A stretch of DNA of 25,844 nt from an uncultured bacterium (GCA_964573245.1 CAZNJA010000017.1:1-25844), one strand, 5' to 3'; positions 5,340 to 24,837 are shown, counted from the first letter of the stretch. A program made the numbers and translations. The notes: generated by a model not told the origin, from the sequence alone.

Positions 5340-5397
5340 AACATCAATTTTATATGGAGCTCCAGACTTTTACAAGCAAAGGTGGATAAAAAACTTG

Positions 5398-5526
5398 CCC
5401 CGTTTAGAGATAAAGTGAAATATGCTGTATATGTTATACAGAGTAGGAAAAATTATATATTGGATACAGGTGCGAGTTATAATTTACGTCCGCCACTGCT
5501 TCAATGGCGGACTATCTCTAACGGGG
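5398..5526. mobile_element. 129-bp long GTTAGA-family MITE-like element with CTTG direct repeats
   Basis: CTTG-CCCCGTTTAGAGAT...TTAC-GTCCGCCA(N9)TGGCGGAC-TATCTCTAACGGGG-CTTG. Confidence 0.75.
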
Positions 5527-5530
5527 CTTG

Positions 5531-5559
5531 ACCCGTAAAGAAATAAATTTCTAACGGGT
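5531..5559. mobile_element. 29-bp minimal GTTAGA-family element, in tandem with the previous copy
   Basis: CTTG-ACCCGTAAAGAAATAAATTTCTAACGGGT-CTTG. Confidence 0.7.
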
Positions 5560-5560
5560 C

Positions 5561-5589
5561 TTGCAAATGAATACTGAATATCATATAAT
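5561..5589 (+). promoter_or_regulatory. Sigma70-type promoter for rpmB
   Basis: TTGCAA-17 bp-TATAAT, 9 bp upstream of the ATG at 5599. Confidence 0.65.
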
Positions 5590-5598
5590 TTGCGCCAA

Positions 5599-5790
5599 AT
5601 GTCTAGAGTATGCGAAATATGTGGAAAAGGACCTACTACAGGGCATAATGTGAGCCACTCCAACAGAAAGGCAAAAAGAAGATGGTTGCCTAATCTGCAA
5701 TATGTAAGGGTAATAACTGCAGAAGGTGTAAAGCGGATCCGCGCCTGCACAGCCTGTATTCGCTCAAATAAAGTCAAAAAAGCAGTGTAA
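5599..5790 (+). CDS. rpmB: 50S ribosomal protein L28 (CxxC..CxxC form)
   Basis: [34 protein letters not shown]...ACTACIRS. Confidence 0.96.
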
Positions 5791-5807
5791 AATCATCAAA
5801 CCTTTTT

Positions 5808-6680
5808 TTACCTCGCTAATTCCAAATTTTTCAGAACTTTAACCAATTTCTCTTTGTTCTCTTCCGTCATCCTGCAAAGAGGCAACCTCAAATGAGGTTG
5901 AATTTTACCCATCAATGCAAGCGTTTCTTTTACGGGAATTGGATTTGTTTCATAGAAAAGGGCTTCAAATAACGGGAATAATTCCAAGTGTATTTTTTGC
6001 GCTTCCTGGATTTTTCCGTCTTTAAAATTTCGAACAAGTTCATGTATTTTTCTAGGGACTACATTGGCGGCTACGGAAACAACTCCTTTGCCACCTACGG
6101 AAAGAATCGGCAAAGTTACGGAATCGTTGCCTGAAAGAACAGTTATATTGCAAAGTGAAAGCGTCTTACTTACCTGGTCAAGTGATGGATTTGCCTCCTT
6201 TATGGCAACTACATTTTTAATTTTGGAAAGTCTTGCTATGGTTTCAGGCAACATATTCGTGCCCGTGCGCCCAGGCACATTATAAAGAATAATGGGTATG
6301 TCAACCTCTTCGGCTATTTTTTTATAATGCAGATATTGTCCTTGAGGAGTAGGTTTATTATAATAAGGTGTTATTATCAATGCAGCGTCAGCGCCTACTT
6401 TTCTTGCAAAAGATGTCAAATCAAGTGCTTCGTCGGTAGAATTGGAGCCAGTCCCGGCAACAACTGGAATCCTTCCGTTTACTTTTCCTACAACAAATTC
6501 TATGACCTTTTTCTGCTCGGCATGTTTTAATGTGGCGGCTTCGCCAGTGCACCCGCAAGGTAATATGCCGTCGGTTTTCTCCGAAATATGAAATTCTATT
6601 AATTTTCCCAAACTTTCGAAATCAATTTCTCCGTTTTCACGAAAAGGAGTAATCAACGCTACAATTGAACCGCTAAACAT
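5808..6680 (-). CDS. dapA: 4-hydroxy-tetrahydrodipicolinate synthase
   Basis: ALITPF, GCTGE, ITPYYNKP, LYNVPGRTG, AIKEA, ETNPIPVK; GGAGG RBS before ATG 6680. Confidence 0.95.
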   Translation of the reverse strand: MFSGSIVALITPFRENGEIDFESLGKLIEFHISEKTDGILPCGCTGEAATLKHAEQKKVIEFVVGKVNGRIPVVAGTGSNSTDEALDLTSFARKVGADAALIITPYYNKPTPQGQYLHYKKIAEEVDIPIILYNVPGRTGTNMLPETIARLSKIKNVVAIKEANPSLDQVSKTLSLCNITVLSGNDSVTLPILSVGGKGVVSVAANVVPRKIHELVRNFKDGKIQEAQKIHLELFPLFEALFYETNPIPVKETLALMGKIQPHLRLPLCRMTEENKEKLVKVLKNLELAR

Positions 6681-6696
6681 ATTTACCTCCAATTTA

Positions 6697-6803
6697 AAGA
6701 CTAAAGACTTTAGACCCAAGACTACAGACTAAAAAATTTTTAAAAGTTTTATATCTAAAGTCCAATGTCCAGAGTCTAATGTCTGATATCTTATGTCTGG
6801 TCT
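6697..6803. repeat. Inverted arrays of degenerate heptamers (AAGACTA-like x5, inverse x7)
   Basis: AAGACTA AAGACTT TAGACCC AAGACTA CAGACTA, an AT spacer, then ATATCTA AAGTCCA ATGTCCA GAGTCTA ATGTCTG ATATCTT ATGTCTG. Confidence 0.75.
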
Positions 6804-8018
6804 TCATTTTAACCCAATCAACTGATTCATTTCAAATATAGGCATAAGAATAGAGATGGCAATAATCCCAACTATAAGACCCATAGTAATTATGACCAGG
6901 GGTTCAAGAAGAGTGGTAAACCTATTTAATGCCATTGTTACTTCTTCTTCGTAATTCTTTGAAATATCATCCAACATTTGCTCCAAATTCCCGCTTTTTT
7001 CTCCTATTTCAACCATATGTAAAAAAAGCGGCGGAAAAACGCCGCTCCTTCTTAGAGCCTTGCTCATGCTGTCTCCGCGAGAGATATCCTCTTTCGCCTG
7101 ATATATCGCATTAGAGATAACTTCGTTTCTAACCGCATCCTTTGCAAGTTCAAGCGAAGTAACAATTGTAACTCCACCTTTTCTAAGAGTGGATATGGTT
7201 CTCGCAAAATTCGCGACAAGCGACTTTCTTGCAATTTCTCCGATAACAGGAAGTTTTAATTTCAATCCGTCAATTTTCTCTCTCGTTTTTTTCACGTGAA
7301 GCAGCCATATAAATGCCGCAGTTAGGATGACTATTCCGACAAGAATTATGACCCAGTAATTTTTCAAAAAAGTGGAAATATTAATTAAACCCAACGTAAG
7401 CGGCGGCAAAGTTTTATTCATCTGTTCAAATAATCCCGAAAGGGTGGGAACCACGACCGTCATAAGAAAAACGAGCACTCCCACACCAACAAAACTAATC
7501 ACTGCGGGATAAATTAAAGCATTTCTAACTTTATTGCGCAAATTAATATTCTCTCTTATCAGCGCCGAAATCCTCAAAAGAATATCCGCCAAACTGCCGG
7601 TCTCCTCGCCGCTCCTTATCATATTTATATAAATAGGCGAAAAAACTTTACTGAATAAAGAAAGAGATTCTGCAAAAGATTTGCCTTCTTTTACAGACTC
7701 TGCCAAACCCAACACTATTCTTCTTAAACGATGCGAACTAACCTGTTCCGCTATAGCGTTTAAACTGGACAAAAGCGGAAGCCCACCTTTCAACAGAGTG
7801 GCTAATTGATGAGAAAATAATGCAACGTCTTCACTATTTGTTTTTCTAAAAGATAGGAAATTGCGGCCCGAAGAAGTTTGAGTAACTGCATTAACATCAA
7901 CGGGGAAAAGAGATTGTTCACGCATCTTATCTCTTGCTTCTTCCACCGAAGATGCGTCTATTATTCCTTTTACCGTCCTGCCGCCTTTATTTAAGGCTTT
8001 GTATTCAAATACAGCCAT
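6804..8018 (-). CDS. gspF: Type II secretion inner-membrane platform protein GspF (PilC family)
   Basis: MAVFEYKAL, QLATLL..GLPL, MI.SGEETGSL, ALIYP, MVEIGEKSGNL, LLEP; located after gspE. Confidence 0.9.
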   Translation of the reverse strand: MAVFEYKALNKGGRTVKGIIDASSVEEARDKMREQSLFPVDVNAVTQTSSGRNFLSFRKTNSEDVALFSHQLATLLKGGLPLLSSLNAIAEQVSSHRLRRIVLGLAESVKEGKSFAESLSLFSKVFSPIYINMIRSGEETGSLADILLRISALIRENINLRNKVRNALIYPAVISFVGVGVLVFLMTVVVPTLSGLFEQMNKTLPPLTLGLINISTFLKNYWVIILVGIVILTAAFIWLLHVKKTREKIDGLKLKLPVIGEIARKSLVANFARTISTLRKGGVTIVTSLELAKDAVRNEVISNAIYQAKEDISRGDSMSKALRRSGVFPPLFLHMVEIGEKSGNLEQMLDDISKNYEEEVTMALNRFTTLLEPLVIITMGLIVGIIAISILMPIFEMNQLIGLK

Positions 8019-8035
8019 AATCATTTAAAACAAAA

Positions 8036-8126
8036 TAACGATAGACGACCGTTCCCCCGACATTACGCCGGGCTAACTAGGACGAAAAAAGTTTCTTCAT
8101 CATCCCTCGTCCTTCGTCCCTCATTT
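8036..8126. repeat. Inverted degenerate heptamer arrays (GGACGAA-like) with a nested hairpin
   Basis: TAACGAT AGACGAC...GGACGAA, then ATCATCC CTCGTCC TTCGTCC CTCATTT; CCCGAC-N5-GCCGGG at 8056-8072. Confidence 0.55.
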
Positions 8127-8128
8127 TT

Positions 8129-9826
8129 TTAGTCCATTATTTCCTGAGTTTCGCTCAAAACTTCGGACAAAGTCGTAACACCCTCATAAACTTTTTTTAG
8201 CCCGTCGTCTCTTAAAGTCCTCATCCCAAGTTTTTTTGCTTCGTTCCTGACAGTGCGAGATGATTTTTTTTCCAGTATCATCTTTTCAATTGCTTCTTGA
8301 ATAAGCAGGATTTCAAAGATTGCTATTCTGCCCAAATACCCCTCATGACAATAGGAACACCCTTTGCCTTTGAATAATTTCTTGGGAAGCTCTTCTTTTT
8401 TTACGCCCAACTTTTCAAATTCTATTATTTCATCTCTATTTTCCAACTGATACTCAATTTTACAGTAATGACATATTTTCCTAACTAACCGCTGTGCTAT
8501 TATTGCCCTTACAGAAGAAGTCAAAAGATATGGTTCTACGCCTATATCAATAAGTCTTGTTATGGCTCCAGCCGTATCATTAGTGTGGAGTGTAGAAAAA
8601 ACCAGATGCCCTGTCAAAGAAGCTCTCACAGCAATGTCTACGGTATCCAAATCTCTCATCTCGCCCACCATTATGATATCAGGGTCGTGACGTAGTATTG
8701 AGCGTAAACCGTTTGCAAAGGTAAGATTTATTTCTGGTTTAACTTGTATTTGAGCAATACCCGGCAATTGATATTCTATCGGGTCTTCCACCGTTACTAT
8801 ATTTTTGTCGGGGGAATTTATTCTGGAAAGTGCGGCATAAAGAGTAGTCGTTTTTCCCGAGCCAGTAGGTCCAGTAACCAGAATAATACCATTGGAAAGA
8901 TGAATTAAATCGTCCATAGTTGCATACATTTGTTCATCCAATCCGAGTTCTCCCAAATCAAAAAGACTTGCCCTGTCAAGCAATCTCAAAACAACCCTTT
9001 CTCCTCCAGCAACGGGAATTACAGATACTCGTATATCGATCTCTTTATCGCCCGATTTTATGTCAAATCTTCCGTCCTGGGGCAATCTTCTTTCCGCAAT
9101 GTTCAAACTCGCCATAACCTTTATTCTGGAGACAATCGCCGAATGATAAGATTTGGGAGGATTTAACACGTCATATAAAATGCCGTCTATACGGTATCTT
9201 ATTCTAAGTTTTGCGGGCAACGGCTCTATGTGTATATCGCTTGCCCTTTTTTCGATTGCCTGAAAAATCATTAAGTTTACAAGTTTAATTACCGGTGCCT
9301 TATTGGCAAGGTCCAGCAAATCTTCGGTCTTTTCATCTGCCGCAAATCCAAGCAAGTCCTCTTTCATTTCTTTCATAACATCTTCTGTAGAGCCCGATTC
9401 AGGCCTGTATAACTTATCTAAACTGCTAAGAATTTCTTTTTCACATGCAAGCACCAGTTTGATTTTATATCCGCTAATATTTGCAAGTTCCCCAGTTGGA
9501 GGCAAATTTAAAGGATCCGAAGTCGCTATAGTAAGAACATCTTGATTTATATTTATGGGAAGGAGTTTATAATTTTTAAGAATCTTCAAAGGGATGGTTT
9601 TTAAAGTAGACCCATCGATTTTATCCAAAGAAATTTCGGGAAGGAACGGGATAGACAATATTTTACTGAAAAATTTCAAAAGGCTTTCTTCGCTAATATG
9701 TCCTTCTTTTAACAGTAGTTTGTCAAGACGTTCGTTTCGCTGTTTTGAAAGTTGAAGAAATTTTTCCAATTTTTCTTCATTGATAAGATTTTCTTTAAGG
9801 AGCAACTGGCTGATATCAAATTCCAT
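8129..9826 (-). CDS. gspE: Type II secretion ATPase GspE
   Basis: ASDIHIEP, RRLPQDGR, Walker A GPTGSGKTT, LRHDPDIIMVGEMRD, TGHLVFSTLHTN, tetra-Cys motif. Confidence 0.93.
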   Translation of the reverse strand: MEFDISQLLLKENLINEEKLEKFLQLSKQRNERLDKLLLKEGHISEESLLKFFSKILSIPFLPEISLDKIDGSTLKTIPLKILKNYKLLPININQDVLTIATSDPLNLPPTGELANISGYKIKLVLACEKEILSSLDKLYRPESGSTEDVMKEMKEDLLGFAADEKTEDLLDLANKAPVIKLVNLMIFQAIEKRASDIHIEPLPAKLRIRYRIDGILYDVLNPPKSYHSAIVSRIKVMASLNIAERRLPQDGRFDIKSGDKEIDIRVSVIPVAGGERVVLRLLDRASLFDLGELGLDEQMYATMDDLIHLSNGIILVTGPTGSGKTTTLYAALSRINSPDKNIVTVEDPIEYQLPGIAQIQVKPEINLTFANGLRSILRHDPDIIMVGEMRDLDTVDIAVRASLTGHLVFSTLHTNDTAGAITRLIDIGVEPYLLTSSVRAIIAQRLVRKICHYCKIEYQLENRDEIIEFEKLGVKKEELPKKLFKGKGCSYCHEGYLGRIAIFEILLIQEAIEKMILEKKSSRTVRNEAKKLGMRTLRDDGLKKVYEGVTTLSEVLSETQEIMD

Positions 9827-9830
9827 TTCA

Positions 9831-9983
9831 CCTCGTTAGAGATAGCTCCGACGATACGTCGGAGCGTAACTCATACTTAATATGTGAACACCTTTTGTCT
9901 TTATTTTTAAAGCATTGATATAAATCATAAATTTTTCTTTTTAATCCCCGCCTGCCAAATCTTGGCGGGCAGGTCTAACGGGG
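9831..9983. mobile_element. Long GTTAGA-family element (126 bp plus nested 27-bp unit), reverse orientation, TTCA direct repeats
   Basis: TTCA-CCTCGTTAGAGATA-GCTCCGACG(ATA)CGTCGGAGC-GTAA...ATC[27-bp unit]TCTAACGGGG-TTCA. Confidence 0.75.
9947..9973. repeat. 27-bp REP-like unit (copy 2)
   Basis: Identical to 4750-4776; interrupts the ATCTCTAACGGGG end. Confidence 0.85.
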
Positions 9984-9987
9984 TTCA

Positions 9988-10113
9988 CCCCGATTAGAGA
10001 TCTCACTACAATAAAAGCCCTTATTTAAATAGAATTGTAGAAGCCAAAACAATACAAAACTCTTTTCAAGTAATTACAGAAATGTCAAAAGACATTTCTT
10101 ATCTCTAACGGGG
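9988..10113. mobile_element. 126-bp long GTTAGA-family element, tandem, TTCA direct repeats
   Basis: TTCA-CCCCGATTAGAGAT...TTAC-AGAAATGTC(AAAA)GACATTTCT-TATCTCTAACGGGG-TTCA. Confidence 0.75.
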
Positions 10114-10114
10114 T

Positions 10115-11992
10115 TCACTTAATTGTCTCTTCTATTTTGAATATATCCTGAAGTTCTTTTTTCTGTCGCGTTAATTGTTCTATTTTTTCCTTCTCTCTTA
10201 TAATATAAGGGGTTATGAATATAAGAAGATTTCTCCGCTCGGTTGTTTCTTCTGTCCTTCTAAACAAGTTTCCTATAATCCATATATCGCCCAATAACGG
10301 GACTTTATGTAAAACTTTAGTGCTGTCGTCTCTTATAAGTCCTCCGATAACAATCGTAGAGCCGTCATCTACCGATACGCTTGTCTTTGCTTCTCTTATC
10401 GTTGTTACGGGTAATTCTGTCCCGGTTGATGTGGGAACAAGTTTTGTAACTTTCTGATGTATATCGAGTTTAAGATTATTTTCTACCCCAATGTAAGGTG
10501 TTATTGTCAATTCTATGCCAACATCTTTATATGCATAACTGCTTACGACAGTATCCTGCTCGGTTATACGGGAAGAAGTTAGATAAGGAATGTTCTCGCC
10601 AACTAAGATCTTAGCCTCTTTATTATCTAAAGTAAGTATTTGAGGAGTAGAAAGAATATCAAATCCGGTTTTTTTATGATACGCTTGTATAATCATCCCC
10701 ACATTAGGTATTCCCGCTGTTGTTCCCTTCATAGCCCCCACGATAAGCCCGGAAAACGTCAGTGCTCTTGAGTAAAGAGTTGGTTGTCCGCTGTATTTTG
10801 CACCCCCAAAACCTGTGTACTCATCTTCCATAGGCGCATCTACAGTGCCCCACTCAACGCCCAATTCCGACATTAAATCCATAGACACATCGGCAATCAA
10901 TGCCTCCAAAAAGACCTGCGGTCTTGCGGAATCAAGTTGGTCTATTACTTCTTTGATGTTTTCATACTCTTCGGGCTCCGCGGTAACAATCAAAGAACGC
11001 GTTGATACATCCGCACTAATACTGACGGTTTTCTCGCCTTTTTGAGCATTGTCTTTTCCCAAAGGCATAGCCGAAAGAATTTTAGCCAATTCTTCAGCAT
11101 CAGCATATTTCAATTTATAAATATGTATAGTCTCCCTTCCCGGCGGGGGAAGAATATCCAACTGTTCAATGAGTTTTTTTACTTTGAAAGTATCATCTTT
11201 ATTGGCAACCAAAATAATGGAATTTATACGCTCGTCGGGTATAAGCGTAACTCCTCCGCCAACGGAACCCACAACGCGGGGCACAGCGCCTCTTACGGCT
11301 CTTGTCGGAGTAATTGCTGTTTTGCCTGTACTTTCTACGGCAGTAGTTACTTTTTCGGCAATAGTTTGTGCAGAAGCATATTTAATGGGAATAATGGTGG
11401 TTTCCAATTTCGCACCCGCAATATCAAAATTGTTTATAATAGTTAAAAGTTTACGTATGTTGGAAGATGTATCCGTAACAATTAAAGTATTCGTAGGGGA
11501 ATAAGCAGTTAAATGTCCCTGTGAAGAAATAAGCGCAGAAAGTATAGAAATAATCTGTTGACTGTCCGCATACTCCAGAGGAATCAGTTGAGTAACCATC
11601 TTGTCTTCCATCGGTATTTCGGAAATTTCCTTGCCAATGCCTGTAGGCAAAGCAGACTGCCTGGCAGTTGCTATAGGCACTATTTTCGTAACTCTGCCAG
11701 AAGCTATCGCTGTAAACCCTCTAACTTCAAGCACAGACAAAAATACCGCATATATCTCTTCTACCGGTATCTTGGTCGGCGAGATAATAGTCACATTCCC
11801 TCTGACCCTATCGTCAAGCAAAAAATTCTTTCCCGTAACCTTTGAGACAAAATTAGTAACCACCCTTAAATCCACATCCTCAAAGTTTATAGAGATTAAT
11901 TCTTCTTCAGAGCAAACGTTTAAAAACATTGCTAAAAACAAAATGGCACAGATAACTATTCCCAACCCAGTTTTTTTAATATGTATAATCAT
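10115..11992 (-). CDS. gspD: Type II secretion secretin GspD
   Basis: N0 domain (INFEDVDL...VSKVTGKNFLLDDRVRGNVTIISP), repeated N domains, secretin motifs QVFLEALI, LSTPQILTLDN, KVPLLGDI...GNLFR, LLIFITP. Confidence 0.93.
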   Translation of the reverse strand: MIIHIKKTGLGIVICAILFLAMFLNVCSEEELISINFEDVDLRVVTNFVSKVTGKNFLLDDRVRGNVTIISPTKIPVEEIYAVFLSVLEVRGFTAIASGRVTKIVPIATARQSALPTGIGKEISEIPMEDKMVTQLIPLEYADSQQIISILSALISSQGHLTAYSPTNTLIVTDTSSNIRKLLTIINNFDIAGAKLETTIIPIKYASAQTIAEKVTTAVESTGKTAITPTRAVRGAVPRVVGSVGGGVTLIPDERINSIILVANKDDTFKVKKLIEQLDILPPPGRETIHIYKLKYADAEELAKILSAMPLGKDNAQKGEKTVSISADVSTRSLIVTAEPEEYENIKEVIDQLDSARPQVFLEALIADVSMDLMSELGVEWGTVDAPMEDEYTGFGGAKYSGQPTLYSRALTFSGLIVGAMKGTTAGIPNVGMIIQAYHKKTGFDILSTPQILTLDNKEAKILVGENIPYLTSSRITEQDTVVSSYAYKDVGIELTITPYIGVENNLKLDIHQKVTKLVPTSTGTELPVTTIREAKTSVSVDDGSTIVIGGLIRDDSTKVLHKVPLLGDIWIIGNLFRRTEETTERRNLLIFITPYIIREKEKIEQLTRQKKELQDIFKIEETIK

Positions 11993-11996
11993 AAAT

Positions 11997-14002: not shown

Positions 14003-14111
14003 AATATTTTTATTTCGCCTTAGGGCAAAGCGGGATGATGCAACGGACTGCTTTAACCCAATATTCAAGACGAGCGCAGGAACAAAAGCAGACAGAAAGA
14101 AAGTAAAATGC

Positions 14112-14357: not shown

Positions 14358-14386
14358 ATTAAAACCTCCTTACAATTGAGGGAGTG

Positions 14387-14415
14387 ATTATAATCTATAA
14401 AATATAACGAATCAA
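14387..14415 (-). promoter_or_regulatory. Sigma70-type promoter for rpmA
   Basis: TTGATT-17 bp-TATAAT on the minus strand. Confidence 0.55.
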
Positions 14416-17710: not shown

Positions 17711-17712
17711 TT

Positions 17713-18819
17713 TTACTCGATTATTTTAATTTCAGTTCCTTCTCCTACTGAATTTTGTCCCTCGGTTATTAAAAGTTCTCCTTTTTTTAACCCTGATAGA
17801 ATTTGCAACATTCCTGTTTCTTCCAAGCCCGTGACAATTTCTCTTTGTCGGGCTTTTCCATCCTCTGCCACAAAGACATATTTTTTATCATTTTGTTCGA
17901 GTATGACGTCCCTTAAGATGACCACTGCGTTTTCATGGAGGGATAGGATTAAACCTACCCTGGCAAACATACCCGGTTTTAATAAATGGGCAGGATTAGG
18001 TATTTTCACTTCTACCGGTGCGGTTCTTGATGAGAAGTCTAAAACGGGTGAAATATTTGATACAGCGCCTTCAAATGTCTCTTGAGGATAAGCATCTACC
18101 TTGACTCTTGCTTTCTGTCCCATCTTAACTTTAACAATATCCTTCTCGGTTACATTTACTATGACTTTGACTATATCCATATCAACAATGTTAACTACAG
18201 GTGCTCCTTTCATCTGGGAAGTAGCAGTAACCATATCTCCCTCTTCTATAAACTTTTGGGCAATTACTCCACTAATTGGAGCGAATATAGCGGAATCTCT
18301 CAGTTGAATTTTAGCAAGTGCCAAAACAGCTTCTAATTCCTTAACTTGAGCTTGAGCGCTTTCGTAAGCAGTTGTTACGCTGTCAAATCTCTGTTCAGAG
18401 ATAACATTCTGCTCAAAAAGATTTTTGAACCGTTCATAATCTTTCCCAAGATTCTCAAGATTTATCCCTGCAGATTCTAATGCGGATTCTAATCTTTCCA
18501 CATCTAAAATTAATTTTTCCTTTTCTATTGTTGCAATAGGGTTGCCTTTTGTGACATTGTCCCCAATATCAACAGCTAACTTTTCGACTTTTCCGCTGAC
18601 ACCGGAATATACGGTTACTTGAGACTGCGGTTCAATATCTCCCGTAAGATACAATTTTTTCTCGATAGTTTGCAATTTGACTCTTTCGGCGACTACGGGA
18701 ATTTCCGCCTCCGCCCCAACTTCCTCTGTCAACCTTTTGGATGCAATTGTTTGATACACACGATAACCTACTAAACCCAAAAGAACCAAAACGACTATCA
18801 AGACAATTGTTTTTTTCAT
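17713..18819 (-). CDS. RND periplasmic adaptor (MFP)
   Basis: N-terminal anchor, lipoyl halves (V..GD.V.KG; APISGVI), coiled hairpin, LKPGMFAR. Confidence 0.92.
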   Translation of the reverse strand: MKKTIVLIVVLVLLGLVGYRVYQTIASKRLTEEVGAEAEIPVVAERVKLQTIEKKLYLTGDIEPQSQVTVYSGVSGKVEKLAVDIGDNVTKGNPIATIEKEKLILDVERLESALESAGINLENLGKDYERFKNLFEQNVISEQRFDSVTTAYESAQAQVKELEAVLALAKIQLRDSAIFAPISGVIAQKFIEEGDMVTATSQMKGAPVVNIVDMDIVKVIVNVTEKDIVKVKMGQKARVKVDAYPQETFEGAVSNISPVLDFSSRTAPVEVKIPNPAHLLKPGMFARVGLILSLHENAVVILRDVILEQNDKKYVFVAEDGKARQREIVTGLEETGMLQILSGLKKGELLITEGQNSVGEGTEIKIIE

Positions 18820-18837
18820 TATTTTTCTCCTGTATCT

Positions 18838-20109
18838 TTAATTTATTTTCACCCCTATTGCCCTTTCAACTAAGGCAATAGCAATATTATATTCATAAAG
18901 AGCCTGATAATAATTCGTTTTTGCCTGACTAAGTAAAACCTGCGCATCCAAAACATCCGTATTTGTCGAAAGTCCTTCTTTGAATCTTAACAAAGTATCG
19001 CGAAAATTTTTATCGGCTTCTTTTACCGCCTCATCCTGCACTTTTATCTTTTCTTTTTCCGACAGCAATTTGAAATACGCTTGTCTTACTTCAAGTTCTA
19101 TATTGTTCACAAGAAGTTCTAAACTGCTCCGCACTTGCTCAGATTGGGATTTCGCTTTTCTGACTTCGTTTAAATTTTCTCCCCAGTCCCATATATCCAT
19201 TTCCACTGATACAGTCGCGCTCCAGGATTCTTGCCACTCGTCTATAGGCAGTTCTGCGCCCTTTATCCTGTCCCATTGGCCGATAAGCGAAACTTGGGGC
19301 AGAAAAGAAGAATGAGCAATGCTTACTCCGCTTTGTGAAATCTTCAATCTGCTACTTGCTTCTTTTATTTCAGGCCTTGAATTAATAGCTTGGCTTATAG
19401 CCGAAGAAAGGTCAACATTATAATCATCTAAATACAGAACATCTTCTATCACTACTTCTTGCCCCAAATTTCTATTCAGAAGACTGTTAAAAAGGGATTT
19501 TGCCAGTTCCACGGCATTATCCGCATCTATTAGACTCTGCCTTGCATTTGATAAGGCAACTTTTGCCCTTAAAACCTCAACTTCGGAAACGAGCCCTTCT
19601 TTAAGATATGCCTCTATAGTATTAAGATGGGCTTTTGTTGAAGTTACCGATTCTTCCGCCACTTGTTTGATTTTTCCTGCACCCAAAACTTGAAAATATG
19701 CTTTTTTAACTTCCACAACTAAATTGTTTCGTACCGACTCGAAGTAACTTTGATTTGCTTTAAGATTTTCTCTCTGCAAATTATATGCTGGTAAAAGTCC
19801 TCCGTGAAAAATCGGCTGAACAAGTCCCAAATTATAGTCATAAATCTCATCATCGCTTAAAACTACTGAAGCCATTTCGCTTTTTTCATCCAATCGAGTA
19901 TAAGAAGAAGAACTGTAAATTTTAGGGAAAAAATAGCTTAACGCCTGACTTTTTTCTGCTTGCGCTTCTTTTATTTTTGCGTTGGCTAATCTTATGGAAG
20001 CGTTATTTTCCAATGCTATGGATATGCTCTTTTCAAGAGTAAGCGTGTCTTCCTGCGCAAAGACAAAAAATGGCAAACTAAATATAACCAAAAAAATGAA
20101 TTTCTTCAT
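18838..20109 (-). CDS. TolC-family outer-membrane efflux channel
   Basis: Signal peptide, LTLE.SI..ALENN, two OEP repeats, F.EGL.T..DVLDAQ. Confidence 0.9.
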   Translation of the reverse strand: MKKFIFLVIFSLPFFVFAQEDTLTLEKSISIALENNASIRLANAKIKEAQAEKSQALSYFFPKIYSSSSYTRLDEKSEMASVVLSDDEIYDYNLGLVQPIFHGGLLPAYNLQRENLKANQSYFESVRNNLVVEVKKAYFQVLGAGKIKQVAEESVTSTKAHLNTIEAYLKEGLVSEVEVLRAKVALSNARQSLIDADNAVELAKSLFNSLLNRNLGQEVVIEDVLYLDDYNVDLSSAISQAINSRPEIKEASSRLKISQSGVSIAHSSFLPQVSLIGQWDRIKGAELPIDEWQESWSATVSVEMDIWDWGENLNEVRKAKSQSEQVRSSLELLVNNIELEVRQAYFKLLSEKEKIKVQDEAVKEADKNFRDTLLRFKEGLSTNTDVLDAQVLLSQAKTNYYQALYEYNIAIALVERAIGVKIN

Positions 20110-20522
20110 AGAAGTTCCTCCATTTTTTTAGTTACCTCAAGAAAACTTTTTTTCTCTTGGGCAGAAAACGCTTTAAAAAGGGAAATGAACAGTTCATTGG
20201 ACTGGTTTTTAATTTTTGATATGGCGGTTTTCCCCTTAGGCGTAAGAGAAATAATTATTATCCTTCTGTCGGAAGAAGAGAAATCTCTTCGCACTAATTG
20301 TATTTTTACGAGTTTATCCACCAGCCCGGTTACAGCCGGAGGAGTTACAAAAAGATAATCAGCAACTTCACGCATAGTGGCTTTGGCTTTGTCATTAAGG
20401 TAATCGAGGATATGGTATTGCGGAATAGTTATTTTCCCTTTGCTTAATTCGTTGGACAACCTCGTCCTTATTTTTCTATGTATCTGATCGAACGTTTCCG
20501 TGATTCTATCTATTTCTCTCAT
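20106..20522 (-). CDS. MarR-family transcriptional regulator
   Basis: ITIPQYHIL, wHTH VTPPAVTGLVDKL, DRR...I.LT.KG. Confidence 0.9.
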   Translation of the reverse strand: MREIDRITETFDQIHRKIRTRLSNELSKGKITIPQYHILDYLNDKAKATMREVADYLFVTPPAVTGLVDKLVKIQLVRRDFSSSDRRIIIISLTPKGKTAISKIKNQSNELFISLFKAFSAQEKKSFLEVTKKMEELL

Positions 20523-20550
20523 AATTGCACCCCAAAACTTAACACTCTTA

Positions 20551-20571
20551 ATAATTAAGTAACTTAATTAT
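20551..20571. promoter_or_regulatory. Probable MarR operator (perfect 10-1-10 palindrome)
   Basis: ATAATTAAGT-A-ACTTAATTAT overlapping the -10 box of the marR promoter. Confidence 0.7.
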
Positions 20572-20594
20572 ATCAGAAAAATATTTGTTGTCAA
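20567..20594 (-). promoter_or_regulatory. Consensus sigma70 promoter of the marR-efflux operon
   Basis: TTGACA-16 bp-TATAAT with extended -10 (TGnTATAAT) on the minus strand. Confidence 0.75.
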
Positions 20595-20655
20595 ACTTGA
20601 ATTGGCATTAGTTTATATGGTAAATTACATCGCTAAAAGTGTTCGGAGACAAGAA

Positions 20656-21579
20656 ATGGAAAGAGGAACAGAGTTTCAAATAGGCGCAGAGACTTACGTT
20701 TTGGACCGGTTTATAGGCCAAGGCGGGATGAGCCAGGTATATACGGCTTACAGAAAAGACGATGTCAGCGCTGAAAAACAATGTATAGCAGTCAAATTCC
20801 TTCCGCCCAATATGGCGCGCGACAAAAAAAGGATTCAAGCCTTAAAAGAAGAATTCAACATCATTCGAAAAATTCCCGACCCTGAAAGCTACAACATCAT
20901 AAAGATATACGACATGTTGAAAATCAAAGACGGTTACTGTCTGATTATGCCTTACCTAAAAGGTGGGAATTTGATGCAAAAAGTTATAGATAGGGAAAAG
21001 GCTAAAGGCGAAAAATTCCCCTTCACAGAAAAGGTAAGAATCGCAAGAGATATAGCTTATGGACTTGCATATTTACACGCTTACGACATAGTTCACGGAG
21101 ACGTAAAACCGACAAATATACTTTTTAATGAGGAAGGGCAAGTCAGGATAACGGACTTCGGCTTGTCGCATTCTTCTTCAAATTCACTCTTTAATATTTT
21201 AGCCCAGCTTCTTTTATTTGGTTTTCTGATTAAAAAAGACATTAAGGGAGGAACTCCTGCTTATATGAGTCCTGAACAGTTCAAAGGCTCGAAGCCCGAC
21301 AAGAGCGCTGATATCTACGCTTTGGGAGCGCTCCTGTTTGAATTATTTACTGGTAGTCTGCCATATTCTCCTTATGCTTTTTCCAATAATAGAAAAAGCC
21401 TTATGAAAGGCCATTACCTTGCAAGAAAAAGAGACCGTCAGGCTATGACAATCAAGAGCCAACTCCTTTATTTACCCTTCTCTTTGCAAGAAATAATTCT
21501 TGGATGTTTAATGTTTGATAAAAAAGACAGGTTCCCCACGATTGGAAGTGTTTATGTTAAATTAGACCAAATAAGATAA
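20656..21579 (+). CDS. Hanks-type Ser/Thr protein kinase (catalytic domain only)
   Basis: IGQGGMSQVY, AVK, HGDVKPTNIL, DFG, GTPAYMSPEQ, DIYALG; ATG 20656 with GGAG upstream. Confidence 0.9.
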   Translation: MERGTEFQIGAETYVLDRFIGQGGMSQVYTAYRKDDVSAEKQCIAVKFLPPNMARDKKRIQALKEEFNIIRKIPDPESYNIIKIYDMLKIKDGYCLIMPYLKGGNLMQKVIDREKAKGEKFPFTEKVRIARDIAYGLAYLHAYDIVHGDVKPTNILFNEEGQVRITDFGLSHSSSNSLFNILAQLLLFGFLIKKDIKGGTPAYMSPEQFKGSKPDKSADIYALGALLFELFTGSLPYSPYAFSNNRKSLMKGHYLARKRDRQAMTIKSQLLYLPFSLQEIILGCLMFDKKDRFPTIGSVYVKLDQIR

Positions 21580-21650
21580 ATCTTTAAGTAATTTTTCCGA
21601 AGGATTCTTCGGAATCCATCCGGAACAATCCCCAATTGCTAATTTCTAAT

Positions 21651-22604
21651 ATGGAGCCCAAAAATTTCCAGCGCCTTATTAAACAGGCATTAAAAGAAGA
21701 TATCGGCCCCGAACCAGAGGGCTCTCGGTCCGGGGCAGGCAAAAAAGATATTACGACGGAAACGATTATTGTTGGGGATGTTAAAGTTAAAGCCGTAATC
21801 ATCAGTAAAAACGAAGGCGTAATAGCCGGGTTGGACATCGCAAAAACCGCATTTCAACTTGTGGCAAAAAACATAAAATTCCGCAAACTCGTAAAAGACG
21901 GCGACAATGTTCACAAAAACCAAATTCTGGCAATTTTATACGGTGAAGCGAAAAACATACTAACCGCCGAAAGAACCGCTTTGAATTTCTTGGGCCATTT
22001 GAGCGGAATAGCGACATTAACCTCAAAATATGCAGAAAAAACCAAACCTTACAAATGTAAAATTCTTGACACCAGAAAAACCACTCCGCTTTTGCGGGAA
22101 ATGGAAAAATACGCCGTCAAAACGGGCGGCGGGCATAACCATCGCATGGGGCTTTACGATATGGTTCTTATAAAAGATAATCATATTAAGCTTATATCCC
22201 ATTGCGAAATCAAAAAATTAATAAAGTCGGTTAGAAGAAAAATTTCCTCCGGTTCTACGACCCGTAGACTCGCCTCGCTGCGAAGCGGGGGTCGGAGACC
22301 CAAGAACACAAAAATAGAAATAGAAGTTGAAACCCTGGACGAACTAAAAAACGCCTATGATTGCAAAGCCGATATAATAATGCTTGATAATATGAATCCT
22401 GCCAAAATTAAAAAAGCCGTCAGGTGGATAAAGCAACAAAAAAAATTCAAAGCGCCGCTTCTTGAAGCATCCGGAAACATTAATTTTTCCAACGTAAAAG
22501 AGATTGCCAAAACGGGTATAGACTTTATTTCTATCGGCGAAATAACTCATTCGGCGCCTGCTCTTGACATGAGTCTTAAAATAATAGAAGTTAATGAAGG
22601 TTAA
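21651..22604 (+). CDS. nadC: Nicotinate-nucleotide pyrophosphorylase (quinolinate phosphoribosyltransferase) with two in-frame inserts
   Basis: AERTALN, DTRKT.P, HR.GL.D.VLIKDNH, EIEVE, IMLDNM, EASGNI, ITHSAPALD. Confidence 0.95.
   Translation: MEPKNFQRLIKQALKEDIGPEPEGSRSGAGKKDITTETIIVGDVKVKAVIISKNEGVIAGLDIAKTAFQLVAKNIKFRKLVKDGDNVHKNQILAILYGEAKNILTAERTALNFLGHLSGIATLTSKYAEKTKPYKCKILDTRKTTPLLREMEKYAVKTGGGHNHRMGLYDMVLIKDNHIKLISHCEIKKLIKSVRRKISSGSTTRRLASLRSGGRRPKNTKIEIEVETLDELKNAYDCKADIIMLDNMNPAKIKKAVRWIKQQKKFKAPLLEASGNINFSNVKEIAKTGIDFISIGEITHSAPALDMSLKIIEVNEG
21707..21735. repeat. 29-bp palindromic in-frame insert in nadC
   Basis: CCCCGAACCAGAGGGCTCTCGGTCCGGGG; removing it plus 4 nt restores EDIG-KKDITT. 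Confidence 0.7.
22251..22300. repeat. Nested palindromic in-frame insert in nadC
   Basis: GGTTCTACGACCC...GGGTCGGAGACC enclosing CTCGCCTCGC-T-GCGAAGCGGG; encodes ~18 extra aa before KIEIEVE. Confidence 0.65.
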
Positions 22605-22627
22605 AAAAATATTAACTTCAAAAATTA

Positions 22628-23272
22628 ATGAAACTATTACATCCAGACTTCGAAAACACTATTAAGACCAAAACTATCGGCCATCCTCTCTACATATATT
22701 CAGAACTTGATTCCACTCAAACGACCGCAAAACTTTTAGCTGAAAACGGCGCAAAAGACGGCGCTGTAATACTTGCTTACTCTCAAAAAAAGGGAATGGG
22801 TAGAAACGGGAAAAAATGGTTTTCCCCACAAGGCGGGATTTGGTTAACTGTCATATTAAGACCTTCCTTTACTCTGGAACAGTCGAATATTATCAATGCA
22901 ATTTTCACCACGGCTTGCGCAGAAGTTTTGCATTCCTTCGAAATATCCAATCCGACGATTAAATGGCCCAACGATATATTGGTAAACGGCAAAAAAATAT
23001 GCGGGATATTGACGCAAACGAAAAGCGGAAATAAGATAGAATACGTTTTAGTGGGAGTAGGCATAAACCTTAATACTAAAATGAAAGATTTCCCGTCTGA
23101 GTTGAAAAACACGGCAACATCCTTGAGATGCGAAACAGGCAAGGAAATACAACCGGATAAATTTCTGGCAATACTTTTAGAAAAAATAGAGAAATATTAC
23201 TTTATGTTAAAAGACGAAAAATCTAAAACAATTCAGGCGAAATGGGCAAGTTTTTCTTTGAGCGGAGTATAA
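22628..23272 (+). CDS. birA: Biotin--[acetyl-CoA-carboxylase] ligase, short form
   Basis: DSTQ, Q..G.GR.G..W.SP.GG, IKWPNDI.V.GKKICGIL, VGVGIN. Confidence 0.85.
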   Translation: MKLLHPDFENTIKTKTIGHPLYIYSELDSTQTTAKLLAENGAKDGAVILAYSQKKGMGRNGKKWFSPQGGIWLTVILRPSFTLEQSNIINAIFTTACAEVLHSFEISNPTIKWPNDILVNGKKICGILTQTKSGNKIEYVLVGVGINLNTKMKDFPSELKNTATSLRCETGKEIQPDKFLAILLEKIEKYYFMLKDEKSKTIQAKWASFSLSGV

Positions 23273-23301
23273 CCAAATAAACAAAAGGGAAACAAATACA
23301 C

Positions 23302-24051
23302 ATGCTTTTGGCTGTAAACATCGGGAATACCAATGTGCAGATGGGGCTATTCGTAAATAAAAAATTAGCCTGCTGTATTGTCTTCCCAACTTGCAAGAAG
23401 CCTGCAAATAATTATTACAAGGCAATTTGGGAAAACCTTTCTCAATTCAAAAATATTGAAGCAGTTGCAATTTGCTCTGTCGTTACGTCTTTAACAAAAC
23501 CTCTTCGAAAATTACTCAAAAAACATTTAAAGATAGAGCCGCTTATCGTAAGTGAAAATTTAGATTTGGGAATAAAATTAAATTATAAAAAGAAGGAACT
23601 CGGCGTTGACAGAATAGCAAATGCAGTTGCGGCTTACCATTTATATAAAAAGGGATGTATAGTGGTTGATTTTGGAACAGCCATAACTTTTGATGTGATT
23701 TCTCCCGGAGGTGTTCATTTAGGCGGGGCGATAGCACCAGGCCTGGGTAGTTCCGTAAAAGCGCTCTTTTCAAACACAAGTTTGCCCGAAATAAACAATC
23801 TTGAGGACACGAACTTTGCAATAGGCAAGAATACGGCCAAAAACCTGAAAGTAGGAATACTACACGGTTTTGCTTCCATGGTAAAAGGGCTGGTCGAAGA
23901 ATTCAAAAAGGAGATAAAATTTAAACCGTTTATAATTCTAACCGGCGGGGACGCAAATAAAATAAGCAAAATCTCAAAATTTCCTCATTCAATTAACCCG
24001 TTTCTAACGTTGGATGGGATAAGAATAATATACGAGAGAAATTCTCTCTAA
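23302..24051 (+). CDS. coaX: Type III pantothenate kinase
   Basis: IGNTN, LGVDR, VVDFGTAITFD, GGAIAPG, LTGGDA, LTLDG; follows birA. Confidence 0.9.
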   Translation: MLLAVNIGNTNVQMGLFVNKKLACCIVFPTCKKPANNYYKAIWENLSQFKNIEAVAICSVVTSLTKPLRKLLKKHLKIEPLIVSENLDLGIKLNYKKKELGVDRIANAVAAYHLYKKGCIVVDFGTAITFDVISPGGVHLGGAIAPGLGSSVKALFSNTSLPEINNLEDTNFAIGKNTAKNLKVGILHGFASMVKGLVEEFKKEIKFKPFIILTGGDANKISKISKFPHSINPFLTLDGIRIIYERNSL

Positions 24052-24108
24052 ACAAAGTTGCATACTTTCAGAAAAAGTGATAAGTTTATTCTAAAATGGG
24101 AGGGAAAT

Positions 24109-24837
24109 ATGAATAAATTTAAGAATACAGATTTTCCAATCCGAAACGAGCTTGCCCCGTTAGAAATAAGCCGTCCTTGGACGAGTGTAAAATTTCTAAC
24201 GGGGTTTACCCTAATAGAACTTCTTGTCGTTATTGCAATCATAGGAATACTGGCAGCAGTGCTACTTCCCGCAACTCAAAGGTCAAGAGAAGCAGGAAGA
24301 AGGACAGTGTGTATGAATAACCTTAAGCAGATTGGACTTGCCCTGAATGATTATACAAATGATTACGTTCAGACCTTTCCTCCAACCTCTGATAATACGG
24401 CGACCAATAGAATAAAACAAGCAGGCCCTCCAATAGAAATAGAGGGGCTTGGCTACTTGGTAGAAGCATATCTAAATAGCGAGTTTGGAACTCTAATTTG
24501 TCCGTCAAGTAGCTCCGTATCAATGGCAAGCACTATAAAAATCAATTGGGACGCAGATTTAGATACGGATAGCGCTTATATTTACAGAGGCCTTTCGGGG
24601 GGATTAACGCGTTATTTTAGTGGAAGCGCCAGCAGGAAAGGAAAACCTGCTTTGGTTATGGATTATAATAATAATGATGCGGCAAGTTTATTCTTCAACC
24701 ATGACGGTAACTACGTCAACATTCTTTTTAATGACGGGCACGTGGAAGGTGTCATGAACACAAATGACTTATTAACTATAGATGCAGCTGTTCCAATAAC
24801 AGAAGACGATATTTTCACAGAGGCAGACGGTAAATAA
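24109..24837 (+). CDS. Prepilin-type N-terminal cleavage/methylation protein with H-X9-DG-like C-terminal motif (DUF1559-like)
   Basis: [24 protein letters not shown]...[17 protein letters not shown]...[13 protein letters not shown] 24109 with GGAGGG RBS. Confidence 0.85.
24155..24204. mobile_element. 50-bp GTTAGA-family element in-frame in the prepilin leader
   Basis: Perfect 13-bp IRs CCCCGTTAGAAAT/ATTTCTAACGGGG; reverse strand reads end-TTAC-hairpin-TATTTCTAACGGGG; flanks CTTG/TTTA. Confidence 0.75.

Follow-up and report, generated by a model that had tools for sequence, protein, structure and literature searches.

The short inverted repeats scattered through this contig are probably non-coding MITEs, descended by deletion from a ~278-bp element whose only gene encodes a GIY-YIG nuclease. 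We put at about even the chance that this 86-amino-acid protein is also the element's sole transposase, which would make it a nuclease-only, mechanistically new class of DNA transposon whose reactions are finished by host ligation or repair. If true, the ~278-bp element is a candidate for the smallest autonomous transposon. We know of no smaller one, and to our knowledge the GIY-YIG enzyme type has not so far been counted among transposases, nor is any member known to act as one. A literature search found no description of such a GIY-YIG-only element.

Copies in the window

The window is the whole 25,844-nt stretch analysed here (CAZNJA010000017.1 of GCA_964573245.1, an uncultured bacterium), and its 1.46-Mb genome is labelled G000. 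Six family copies of 29 to 153 nt lie in it (Table 1), and 13-nt terminal inverted repeats (CCCCGTTAGAGAT...) delimit every family member. With up to one mismatch allowed, the window contains the 10-nt end motif TCTAACGGGG 8 times where 1.0 is expected, a count reached in 0 of 100 shuffles. The three long copies share the order inverted repeat, ~72-nt block, TTAC, hairpin, TATC and TCTAACG(G/A)GG. An earlier note on this DNA had described these three, with TTAC 86, 86 and 87 nt from the outer end, and a 50-nt copy that, read in reverse, lacks the variable block; coordinates and architecture proved correct, with the 86-nt distance verified for 5398-5526 and 9988-10113. All copies that it listed are real, and the two 29-nt copies had been overlooked. 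One of these, at 508-536, is flanked by CTAA on both sides (504-507 and 537-540) and folds as DNA at -8.4 kcal/mol (z -3.9).

None of the copies has an ORF of its own, and host genes extend in frame across some of them. For example, the 50-nt copy lies in frame within the leader-coding part of a prepilin-type gene (N_methyl and DUF1559), immediately before its G-F-T-L-I-E codons, with differing flanks (CTTG vs TTTA).

Table 1. Coordinates of family copies, their parts and associated target duplications in the window.
Feature	Position	Strand	Description
29-nt mini copy	508-536	.	inverted repeats alone: T-CCCGTTAGAAAT / ATTTCTAAACGGG-A
Target duplication CTTG, first copy	5394-5397	.	repeated at 5527-5530 and 5560-5563
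129-nt MITE, 122-131-nt class	5398-5526	+	nhmmer match to full-element profile
5398-5526, left repeat	5398-5411	+
5398-5526, block	5412-5483	+	putatively decayed 5' gene block
5398-5526, right half	5484-5526	+	TTAC 5484-5487; hairpin 5488-5512; TATC 5513-5516; right repeat 5517-5526
29-nt mini copy	5531-5559	.	tandem insertion, identical CTTG as 5398-5526
Target duplication TTCA, first copy	9827-9830	.	repeated at 9984-9987 and 10114-10117
153-nt MITE	9831-9983	-	same class as 5398-5526 but inverted
9831-9983, left half	9831-9865	-	repeat 9831-9840; GATA 9841-9844; hairpin 9845-9865
9831-9983, right half	9866-9983	-	GTAA (minus-strand TTAC) 9866-9869; block; nested hairpin 9946-9973; repeat 9974-9983
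Nested 28-nt hairpin, different repeat family (D7)	9946-9973	.	CCCGCCTGCC...GGCGGGCAGG
126-nt MITE, tandem insertion	9988-10113	+	TTAC 10074-10077; hairpin 10078-10099
9988-10113, right end	10100-10113	+	TATC 10100-10103; right repeat 10104-10113
50-nt copy	24155-24204	-	repeat, TTTAC, short hairpin, TATT, repeat

Empty sites and target duplications

The window copies are MITE-like mobile elements and not RNA genes, because orthologous empty sites show clean insertion with a 4-bp duplication. A single CTTG stands at the empty orthologous site in G003 and G004, CTTG occurs at every junction in G000, and 5398-5526 has no counterpart at the orthologous site of G001, G003 or G004. Likewise, TTCA occurs once in G003 and G004, where the empty site is the 5-nt spacer between the stop codon of a secretin gene and the start codon of an ATPase gene, and at every junction in G000. 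G001 and G002 carry an orthologue of 9831-9983, which G003 and G004 lack; 9988-10113 is present in G000 alone among G000-G004. The prepilin-type gene is free of inserts in its G003 and G004 orthologues, and in G002 a 125-nt copy with a TTCA duplication occupies the same codons.

The duplicated targets are T/A-rich tetranucleotides (TTTA, TTCA, TGAA, CTTG), with tandem re-insertion at one and the same tetranucleotide, and the insertions lie between operon genes, at a putative promoter, and in frame at prepilin G|F-T codons. Identical 4-nt flanks border 18 of the 60 paired G000 copies (4.6 expected), 31 of 73 full-length elements (10.9 expected) and, in the 122-155-nt range, 11 of 25 copies; about half of all copies have no identical flanks. 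Contigs from public runs end at elements, and no excision joint was found in them. The family is small and non-coding, with terminal inverted repeats, a duplication relative to empty sites and a relative with the same ends, as in MITEs; we regard the full-length relative that shares these ends as the putative autonomous element.

Size classes across the genome

The exact end motif is found 87 times in G000 against ~1.3 expected from base composition. We list 60 inverted pairs of at most 155 nt (copies of 29-155 nt), and the inverted pairs of the genome form discrete length classes of 28-30, 45-55, 62-74, 92-106, 122-131 and 137-155 nt. Copies of 29 nt consist of two repeats, those of 50 nt of repeat, hairpin and repeat, those of 62-74 nt of two hairpin ends, and those of ~100 nt of two left ends. 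Among the 25 copies of 122-155 nt, a hairpin followed by a TATC-type linker sits beside one repeat in 23-24, and TTAC lies directly 5' of the hairpin in 20 (read from the alignment); TAC or TTAC is also kept at this position in the short hairpin classes. Interiors are unrelated from class to class. The variable blocks, which had been called unrelated, are indeed dissimilar in the three window copies, but every one has subfamily relatives elsewhere, and the block of 5398-5526 shows homology with the 5' part of the gene-bearing parent.

A putative full-length parent

A 298-nt copy in G018 encloses an 86-aa GIY-YIG ORF. Among the best 80 loci encoding relatives of this protein (66-99% identity; many phyla by record title), the left repeat is present in 76, the right repeat in 76 and both in 73, and 71 of the 73 two-repeat elements measure 274-287 bp. 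The full element of ~278 bp has a 13-nt terminal inverted repeat (C/T-CCCGTTAGAGAT), a leader of ~10 nt and a single gene, whose 86 codons encode a stand-alone GIY-YIG nuclease. The last six codons (F-L-S-L-T-G) are the right repeat, and the stop codon, which comes from the flank in 55 of 72 full elements, usually lies in the duplicated target (TGAA, TAAA). A full copy with a TTTA duplication is present in G003, which belongs to the window's own genus, and full elements also occur in G042. The earlier observation that the window holds no cognate enzyme stands, and GIY-YIG, one of the enzymes then proposed, is indeed what full-length copies enclose.

Against a GIY-YIG parent, none of 6 small GIY-YIG genes in G000 is repeat-flanked, and the same is true of all but 1 of 20 in G018, G015, G010, G001 and G002. 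Of 13 genomes with 17 or more end motifs, 3 have a close relative of the nuclease (E <= 1e-25), as do 0 of 40 with at most 7, counts that are not independent because the genomes are related to each other; a full copy was not found in the assemblies of 10 of the 13 motif-rich genomes.

The 86-aa protein matches PF01541 (E = 2.7e-16, 60.1 bits; cut-off 22.6) and is of a minimal Slx1/UPF0213 type, with 1zg2 and 1ywl as nearest solved structures. Y5, Y16, R26, H30 and E50 are invariant in 42 sequences, and we assume their catalytic roles by analogy with I-TevI and UvrC. Median pN/pS is 0.27, with pS saturated. The catalytic domain has no obvious DNA-binding module, and TIGR01453 (GIY-YIG homing endonuclease, group I intron type) scores 26.8 bits, below its cut-off of 56.05, the protein having 86 residues against a 215-position model.

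Probable derivation of the MITEs

Positions 1-94 of the full-element profile align with MITEs of G000 (E = 3e-10 and 2e-9); for the window, nhmmer aligns 5398-5488 with profile positions 1-93 (E = 6.9e-5). The left arm of 5398-5526 is identical to the G003 full element at 52 of 70 aligned bases (z 4.3), and z reaches 13.7 for MITE left arms aligned with that element. On this sequence evidence, the 122-131-nt class corresponds to the parent minus its gene interior, and the left arm appears to comprise the leader and, in decayed form, the gene's first ~70 nt. Of the earlier idea of fixed-length cargo or guide units mobilised in trans, we retain a fixed-architecture family mobilised in trans; the block itself is apparently decayed coding sequence.

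TTAC in the parent is the Leu-Arg codon pair of a D-L-R-K-R motif, and the MITE hairpin is the base of the parent's 12-14-bp long-range stem, which pairs the codons R-K-R-(F/L) with the L-K-R-F-L codons adjoining the right repeat. Across parents, pairing is 99.1% in the repeat helix and 94.4% in the inner stem. Double changes affect 13 of 27 pairs, slid controls have covariation scores of 0.05-0.07 compared with 0.258 here, and the observed values were reached in 0 of 500 shuffles. The earlier objection that this pattern is incompatible with MITE decay is not supported: the parent supplies most of the architecture, and hairpin-free copies also have target duplications. The hairpin is likewise not essential, because the ~100-nt class and the 29-nt minis lack it yet carry duplications. 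Nevertheless, the hairpin stems are perfect although unrelated, and TAC has been retained, both of which point to some constraint.

Alternative explanations

The repeats could instead be ordinary MITEs of a conventional transposon, in which a DDE or other known transposase recognises the CCCCGTTAGAG ends and the GIY-YIG gene is a passenger, an accessory or a separately mobile selfish gene. We consider this unlikely, while recognising that most MITE-rich genomes (10 of 13) have no full copy, and that repeat-free small GIY-YIG genes are common in the same genomes and look otherwise mobile, beside duplicated tRNA halves. PMC10293859 also describes a GIY-YIG nuclease that is a non-essential accessory in the Tsy transposon. 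However, both repeats occur in the same register around 73 of 80 close homologues from many phyla; ~278 bp leaves no space for another gene; and the repeat forms the gene's C-terminus, with the stop codon in the flank. Repeat pairs up to 3 kb apart in G000 enclose no transposase-sized unit, merely neighbouring separate copies, and the longer pairs of G001 and G002 consist of copies that are nested or in tandem. An IS1380/piggyBac-like source (4-bp duplication, ends starting CC) found no support: NF033539 has no match in G000, G002 or G010, and in G015 and G018 it gives only sub-cut-off fragments with no end motif nearby.

Far less probable are two readings that rest on structure. Host-serving elements kept for their fold, as 5' UTR or operon-spacer RNA or as attC-like sites, are very unlikely, even though 19 of 60 copies lie at most 30 nt from a gene start or stop, a repeat end plus duplication can rebuild the ribosome-binding-like GAGGTGA ahead of ATG, and five window copies form single-strand DNA folds of much greater stability than shuffles (z -3.9 to -5.6). 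Presence varies at orthologous sites in close species, copy numbers within a single genus span 3 to 104, the classes have unrelated interiors, and an Rfam 15 search gave no match at gathering score (two chance-level matches fall elsewhere in the window). The words GTTAGAG and CTCTAAC do recall core sites of integron attC, palindromes that conserve structure over sequence, but attC has the consensus order R''(RYYYAAC) ... R'(GTTRRRY) and the element reads GTTAGAG ... CTCTAAC, duplicates its target and forms no cassette array, and the attC analogy drawn earlier is not supported. Least credible of all is single-strand mobilisation by an HUH (Y1) enzyme like those of IS200/IS605 or REP/RAYT, which would cleave at the tetranucleotide TTAC beside a hairpin that it recognises. 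There are resemblances: as in IS608 TnpA systems and REPINs, a tetranucleotide adjoins a subterminal hairpin (here in 20 of 25 long copies and the short hairpin classes), stems stay paired though sequences differ, and the 62-74-nt class matches the inverted hairpin doublets of REPINs. IS200/IS605 and REP/RAYT elements, however, have neither terminal inverted repeats nor target duplication, and this family has 13-nt repeats and 4-bp duplications. Empty sites contradict cleavage at TTAC by setting the boundaries at the repeats, ~40 nt away, and TTAC is coding sequence in the parent. No active Y1 enzyme was found in G000. Its sole Y1_Tnp match (PF01797, 32.7 bits) has no HUH histidines, the HUH position reading S-D-K-V-Y by eye, and belongs to a fusion with an unrelated 436-aa membrane protein and a C-terminal domain. 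The IS608 analogy of the earlier note, and TTAC as a flank-side cleavage site, are not supported.

Comparison with known mobile elements

Bacterial MITEs (Correia/NEMIS of Neisseria, RUP, MITEAba12) and Rickettsia palindromic elements are short, non-coding deletion derivatives moved in trans, with inverted repeats and a short duplication, present in tens of copies that are intergenic or sometimes in frame. The copies described here resemble them in size, repeats, duplication, copy number and sites. They differ in that the putative parent is a ~278-bp GIY-YIG unit rather than a DDE insertion sequence, the 10-13-nt ends are kept across distant phyla, and several modular classes have one common pair of ends.

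The parent nuclease shares its catalytic domain with Slx1-like UPF0213 proteins (1zg2, 1ywl) and with homing endonucleases (I-TevI). GIY-YIG homing endonucleases are also selfish, but they have DNA-binding modules, have one target allele and leave no duplications. In PMC1564403, Slx1 is a structure-specific nuclease and the UPF0213 group is treated as vertically inherited cellular genes, with parasitic further members left open by the authors. Tsy, as PMC10293859 presents it, is a bacterial transposon whose chemistry is performed by tyrosine recombinases and whose dispensable GIY-YIG nuclease raises transposition efficiency; in the element here, by contrast, the nuclease is the sole gene.

Proposed mechanism

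We infer that the GIY-YIG protein is the mobilising enzyme. Probably as a dimer, it would recognise the terminal repeats, which may be read as a cruciform or single-stranded fold, and make staggered cuts; host repair or ligation would then finish excision and insertion. Such a structure-specific, Slx1-like nuclease would read both the parent's conserved long-range stem and the hairpins of the MITEs, and the MITEs would be moved in trans by a single full-length copy still held by some genomes of the lineage. Having no stop codon itself, the element would borrow one from the target duplication. It would enter at start codons, where an ATGA overlap restores the host ATG, and enter prepilins at the G|F-T cleavage site, and host genes would therefore survive. 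Swarms of MITEs would have been seeded as the element spread across Patescibacteria, Omnitrophota, Planctomycetota, Desulfobacterota and other groups.

Other features of the window

At 5560-5563, the final CTTG shares bases with the TTGCAA hexamer of a putative TTGCAA-17 nt-TATAAT promoter, read by eye, upstream of a small + strand ORF, which we take from its N-terminal residues to be ribosomal protein L28. Finally, the D7 hairpin nested in 9831-9983 is missing from the orthologous element in G001. D7 has 20 copies in the genome, 1 of which adjoins the inverted-repeat motif, and a free copy lies in the window at 4749-4776.

A repeat family with discrete length classes

The earlier note described four non-coding copies in the window, three consisting of a repeat, a variable block of about 72 nt, TTAC, a hairpin and a second repeat and a 50-nt copy without the block, and its readings of all four match the sequence (Table). 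It overlooked two further copies, both 29-nt palindromes. Allowing up to one mismatch, the 10-nt end motif inside the terminal inverted repeat (TCTAACGGGG) has eight matches in the window where 1.0 is expected, a count reached in none of 100 shuffles. The genome-wide pattern search that the note had called for bears out a family: G000, the window's genome (1.46 Mb, 110 contigs, 38% G+C), contains 87 exact motifs against about 1.3 expected from base composition, and its inverted pairs fall into discrete lengths of 28-30, 45-55, 62-74, 92-106, 122-131 and 137-155 nt. Single-stranded DNA folds of five window copies gave z values of -3.9 to -5.6. An Rfam scan of the window (E <= 1) returned nothing relevant, with no family at gathering score.

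A separate hairpin family (CCCGCCTGCC - loop - GGCGGGCAGG) is represented twice in the window and by 20 copies in G000, nearly all of them apart from the inverted-repeat family. The one nested within the 153-nt window copy is nested in the orthologue of genome G002 as well and is absent from that of G001.

Table. Coordinates of repeat copies, hairpins and loci discussed in the text
Feature	Location	Description
Short copy	window 508-536	29-nt palindrome
Short copy	window 5398-5526	129 nt
Short copy	window 5531-5559	29-nt palindrome
Tandem insertions	window 5398-5559	129-nt and 29-nt copies
Promoter-like region	window 5560-5640	TTGCAA-17 nt-TATAAT
Short copy	window 9831-9983	153 nt
Short copy	window 9988-10113	126 nt
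Short copy	window 24155-24204	50 nt
Separate hairpin	window 4749-4776	
Separate hairpin	window 9946-9973	nested in 9831-9983
L001	G000:C12:23859-25169	Y1_Tnp-like protein, 436 aa
L023	G000:C27:11433-11818	small GIY-YIG gene
L024	G000:C1:10068-10280	small GIY-YIG gene
L027	G000:C14:13250-13456	small GIY-YIG gene
L155	G001, C11, ~211730-211850	prepilin-type orthologue with leader insert
L160	G003:C13:10544-10823	full element in prepilin-type gene

Insertion and target duplication

The copies are mobile and duplicate 4 bp of their target, and orthologous sites in relatives provide direct proof. The spacer between the secretin and secretion-ATPase genes is 5 nt with a single TTCA in both G003 (same genus) and G004 (same family); in G000 it reads TTCA - 153-nt copy - TTCA - 126-nt copy - TTCA, and in G001 and G002 it holds the first of these copies only. 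Upstream of a promoter-like sequence, G003 and G004 have one CTTG and G000 has CTTG - 129-nt copy - CTTG - 29-nt copy - CTTG; in G001 the 129-nt copy is missing, and a short end-like remnant adjoins the same CTTG. These filled and empty sites indicate that the insertions postdate the split of these species, and the tandem arrays that new copies land next to old ones at the same tetranucleotide. Across G000, identical 4-nt flanks were found for 18 of 60 pairs, against 4.6 expected for independent flanks, and inverted flanks were not enriched (3 against 5.4 expected). Beyond the tetranucleotide, the target-site logo contains weak preferences only: G at -1 (8/18) and C at +1 (10/18) in G000, and A at -1 in 24/30 sites of the A-ended variant.

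At the promoter-like site, the tandem insertions stop exactly at the TTGCAA hexamer, which the last CTTG duplication rebuilds. The short ORF downstream presumably encodes ribosomal protein L28.

Public sequencing runs with the window comprise 16 listed as DNA and 0 as RNA. In four runs, the Logan contigs compared with window 4900-24400 break at the elements; the joints listed arise from cross-matching of copies, and none precisely skips an element, a result that is neutral on current mobility or expression. Public-run contigs stop inside window copies. Several contigs of G018 and G010 have an end motif no more than 60 nt from one of their termini, so the repeat family helps to fragment these assemblies.

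A full element encoding a GIY-YIG nuclease

End motifs number 47-106 per genome in the window's genus and 0-4 in the rest of the family and class, and they are abundant again in three genomes of the 'same domain' rank (26 in G010, 21 in G015 and 75 in G018); the reversed word occurs 0-3 times per strand in every enriched genome. Copies in these three genomes have the ends and flanks of those in G000 and unrelated interiors. The earlier note had advised looking for copies that enclose an ORF, and a 298-nt copy in G018 encloses one of 86 aa on the minus strand. The protein matches PF01541 (E = 2.7e-16) as a GIY-YIG catalytic domain, falls under the cut-off for the intron endonuclease family and is closest, among solved structures, to the UPF0213 proteins 1zg2 and 1ywl. 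The 2006 superfamily survey groups these two with minimal bacterial Slx1-like proteins and asks if additional members are molecular parasites (PMC1564403).

The G018 protein has at least 405 relatives in a collection of species genomes, of which the best 80 were analyzed. These are 66-99% identical over their full length, and their record titles name Patescibacteria groups, Omnitrophota, Planctomycetota, Desulfobacterota/Syntrophales, Nitrospirota, Elusimicrobiota, Clostridia, Bdellovibrionales and others. Among these best 80 of at least 405, a left repeat lies in the 60 nt before the start in 76, a right repeat lies at the 3' end of the gene in 76, and both are present in 73. The full element, hereafter the parent, measures 274-287 bp in 71 of these 73 loci, and its 4-nt flanks are identical in 31 of the 73 (10.9 expected). 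The right repeat encodes the C-terminus of the nuclease, F-L-S-L-T-G. Within the same best 80, the stop codon is the first flank codon in 55/72 full elements, and in 28/72 an ATGA (last A plus TGA) overlaps the host start; TGAA is the most frequent flank, in many cases forming ATGAA with a host start codon. A host ATG to the left of the element is in frame with the nuclease gene in 11/21 cases against 7 expected, an unconvincing excess.

Read as a fixed 86 codons, the gene is open in 68 of 71 elements from these best 80, with one internal stop and two sequences indel-shifted as extracted. Its pN/pS has a median of 0.27, pS being saturated (0.75), and residues Y5, Y16, R26, H30 and E50 are invariant across 42 nuclease sequences. 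Relatives were absent from plasmid and phage collections at E <= 1e-10, and IMG/VR holds only four, all distant (40-59% identity). In a large protein collection, the related clusters at E <= 1e-20 bear no more than generic names such as 'GIY-YIG nuclease family protein', 'excinuclease ABC subunit C' or 'putative endonuclease'. A GIY-YIG domain protein is also listed among genes transferred from Patescibacteria in a published account (PMC12455944). The nucleases of loci L029 (G018:C20) and L165 (G042:C172), from two genera of one family, are 99% identical, which suggests a recent transfer or a shared recent source.

The short copies as interior-deleted parents

Judged by alignment, deleting the interior of the parent yields the architecture described in the earlier note. 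At profile positions 1-94, a nucleotide profile built from 73 full elements matches the 122-131-nt class of G000 (E = 3e-10 and 2e-9; window 5398-5488, E = 7e-5). Aligned to the full element of G003, left arms reach z = 13.7 (C56) and z = 12.2 (C13:1166), and that of the 129-nt window copy is identical at 52/70 bases (z = 4.3); alignments of the 153-nt and 126-nt window copies were insignificant. TTAC lies at the same distance from the left end in the parent as in the MITEs, about 86 nt, where the consensus of a 71-element alignment reads GAT TTA CGG AAA CGC TT. (D-L-R-K-R), so that TTAC corresponds to a Leu-Arg codon pair. The bases after it pair with ..AAG CGT TTC C directly before TATC and the right repeat. 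Among 70 distinct sequences, this 14-pair inner stem is 94.4% paired, with both sides altered in 8 pairs (wobble against wobble), and the repeat helix is 99.1% paired, its outermost pair alternating between C-G (32) and T-A (32). None of 500 shuffles reaches the observed pairing and covariation (0.258 versus 0.05-0.07 for slid partners). The MITEs lack the ~150-nt loop of this stem, which is most of the gene, and retain a short hairpin; the parent-like GGAAAT...ATTTCC is still present in some copies. Repeated deletion of the loop from a single conserved stem accounts for the constant 86-nt arm, and the fixed-length cargo or guide units envisaged in the earlier note are not needed.

Most MITE hairpins have perfect stems of 7-11 bp, the stems belong to at least five unrelated sequence types, and TAC is kept 5' of the hairpin in 20/25 long non-coding copies, with GTAC in the double-hairpin class. 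This combination points to some constraint or to a palindrome-making repair process. Evidence against a strict requirement comes from the 29-nt minis and from the class of ~100 nt with its two left-type ends, which are hairpin-free yet carry duplications. In the parent, the stem could act in DNA, as a cruciform or single-strand fold read by an Slx1-like nuclease, or alternatively in mRNA.

Insertions in prepilin-type genes

The 50-nt window copy lies in frame within the leader of a prepilin-type gene (N_methyl plus DUF1559) whose orthologues in G003 and G004 have an uninterrupted leader ending ...G-F-T-L-(I/T)-E. At the same codons, the G002 orthologue carries a 125-nt copy with TTCA flanks, and the G001 leader holds a different in-frame palindromic insert with GCAAAGGCACAAAG-type repeats. 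Five of 60 G000 copies lie directly before G-F-T/S codons. G003 carries a full element (L160) that is flanked by a TTTA duplication and placed at the G|F-T codons of a prepilin-type gene. Its nuclease ORF has no stop codon and continues in frame through the pilin, giving an open frame of 245 aa. In principle, prepilin peptidase cleavage after ...S-L-T-G would free both proteins.

Candidate mobilizing enzyme

The window copies qualify as MITEs by every feature tested. They do not conform to IS200/IS605-REP/RAYT, IS1380, attC or intron-type homing endonuclease systems in the features tested, which leaves the IS608/HUH and attC analogies of the earlier note unsupported. No description of a bacterial inverted-repeat element encoding only a small GIY-YIG nuclease was found in the openly accessible literature searched; in the Tsy transposon, the GIY-YIG nuclease is a dispensable accessory (PMC10293859). 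On these grounds, we class the window copies as MITEs derived from a variant transposon with a putative new kind of enzyme. In the proposed mechanism, the GIY-YIG protein would make cuts offset by 4 nt where repeat and flank meet, and host functions would rejoin the DNA.

Repeat-flanked small GIY-YIG genes number 0/6 in G000 and 1/20 across G018, G015, G010, G001 and G002. Among 53 genomes, in which kin are not independent, a close nuclease relative (E <= 1e-25) occurs in 3/13 with at least 17 end motifs (G003, G018 and G042) and 0/40 with at most seven; end-motif counts range from 3 to 104 within one genus of G018's class. Zero or one master copy with tens of MITEs fits, but does not prove, mobilization in trans and a later loss of the master copy. 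The repeat-pair interiors of G000, G001 and G002 contained no conventional transposase with these ends, and a search for the IS1380 family, considered because of the 4-bp duplication and CC ends, gave no link to the elements. Repeat pairs of 170-830 nt in G001 and G002, candidates for longer elements, are nested or tandem copies or separate copies flanking a host gene. Y1_Tnp was rejected as cognate enzyme, its sole homologue in G000 being degenerate and fused.

The L001 protein has an N-terminal Y1_Tnp-like domain in which the HUH histidines are seemingly absent, a membrane segment and, at the C-terminus, a domain similar to the neighboring 202-aa ORF.

Known transposases belong to the DDE, DEDD, HUH, serine, tyrosine and Cas1 classes. 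If the GIY-YIG protein moves the elements, it would add one more catalytic class, lower the minimum for an autonomous mobile element below 300 bp, give a function to a very large protein set (5,363 clusters at the E <= 1e-20 threshold) and answer the parasite question of the 2006 survey (PMC1564403). The elements account for assembly breaks and lengthened gene starts in uncultivated bacteria with small genomes and illustrate an insertion strategy that leaves host genes functional. With a one-domain enzyme and 13-nt ends, they would also be a candidate for a very compact DNA-insertion tool.

Other small GIY-YIG genes

In G000, L023 lies within its own perfect 14-nt inverted repeat, the left arm of which ends 5 nt ahead of the ATG; this repeat is not a genome-wide family, and its 23 loose matches look like chance. 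L024 and L027, two of the six small GIY-YIG genes, lack the repeats studied here and adjoin tRNA genes whose 5' halves are duplicated and, by eye, look Gln-like and Val-like, an arrangement that resembles insertion into or beside tRNA genes. One odd tRNA-like copy bears a CTCCGACGTAACGTCGGAG hairpin that is also seen in some MITEs.
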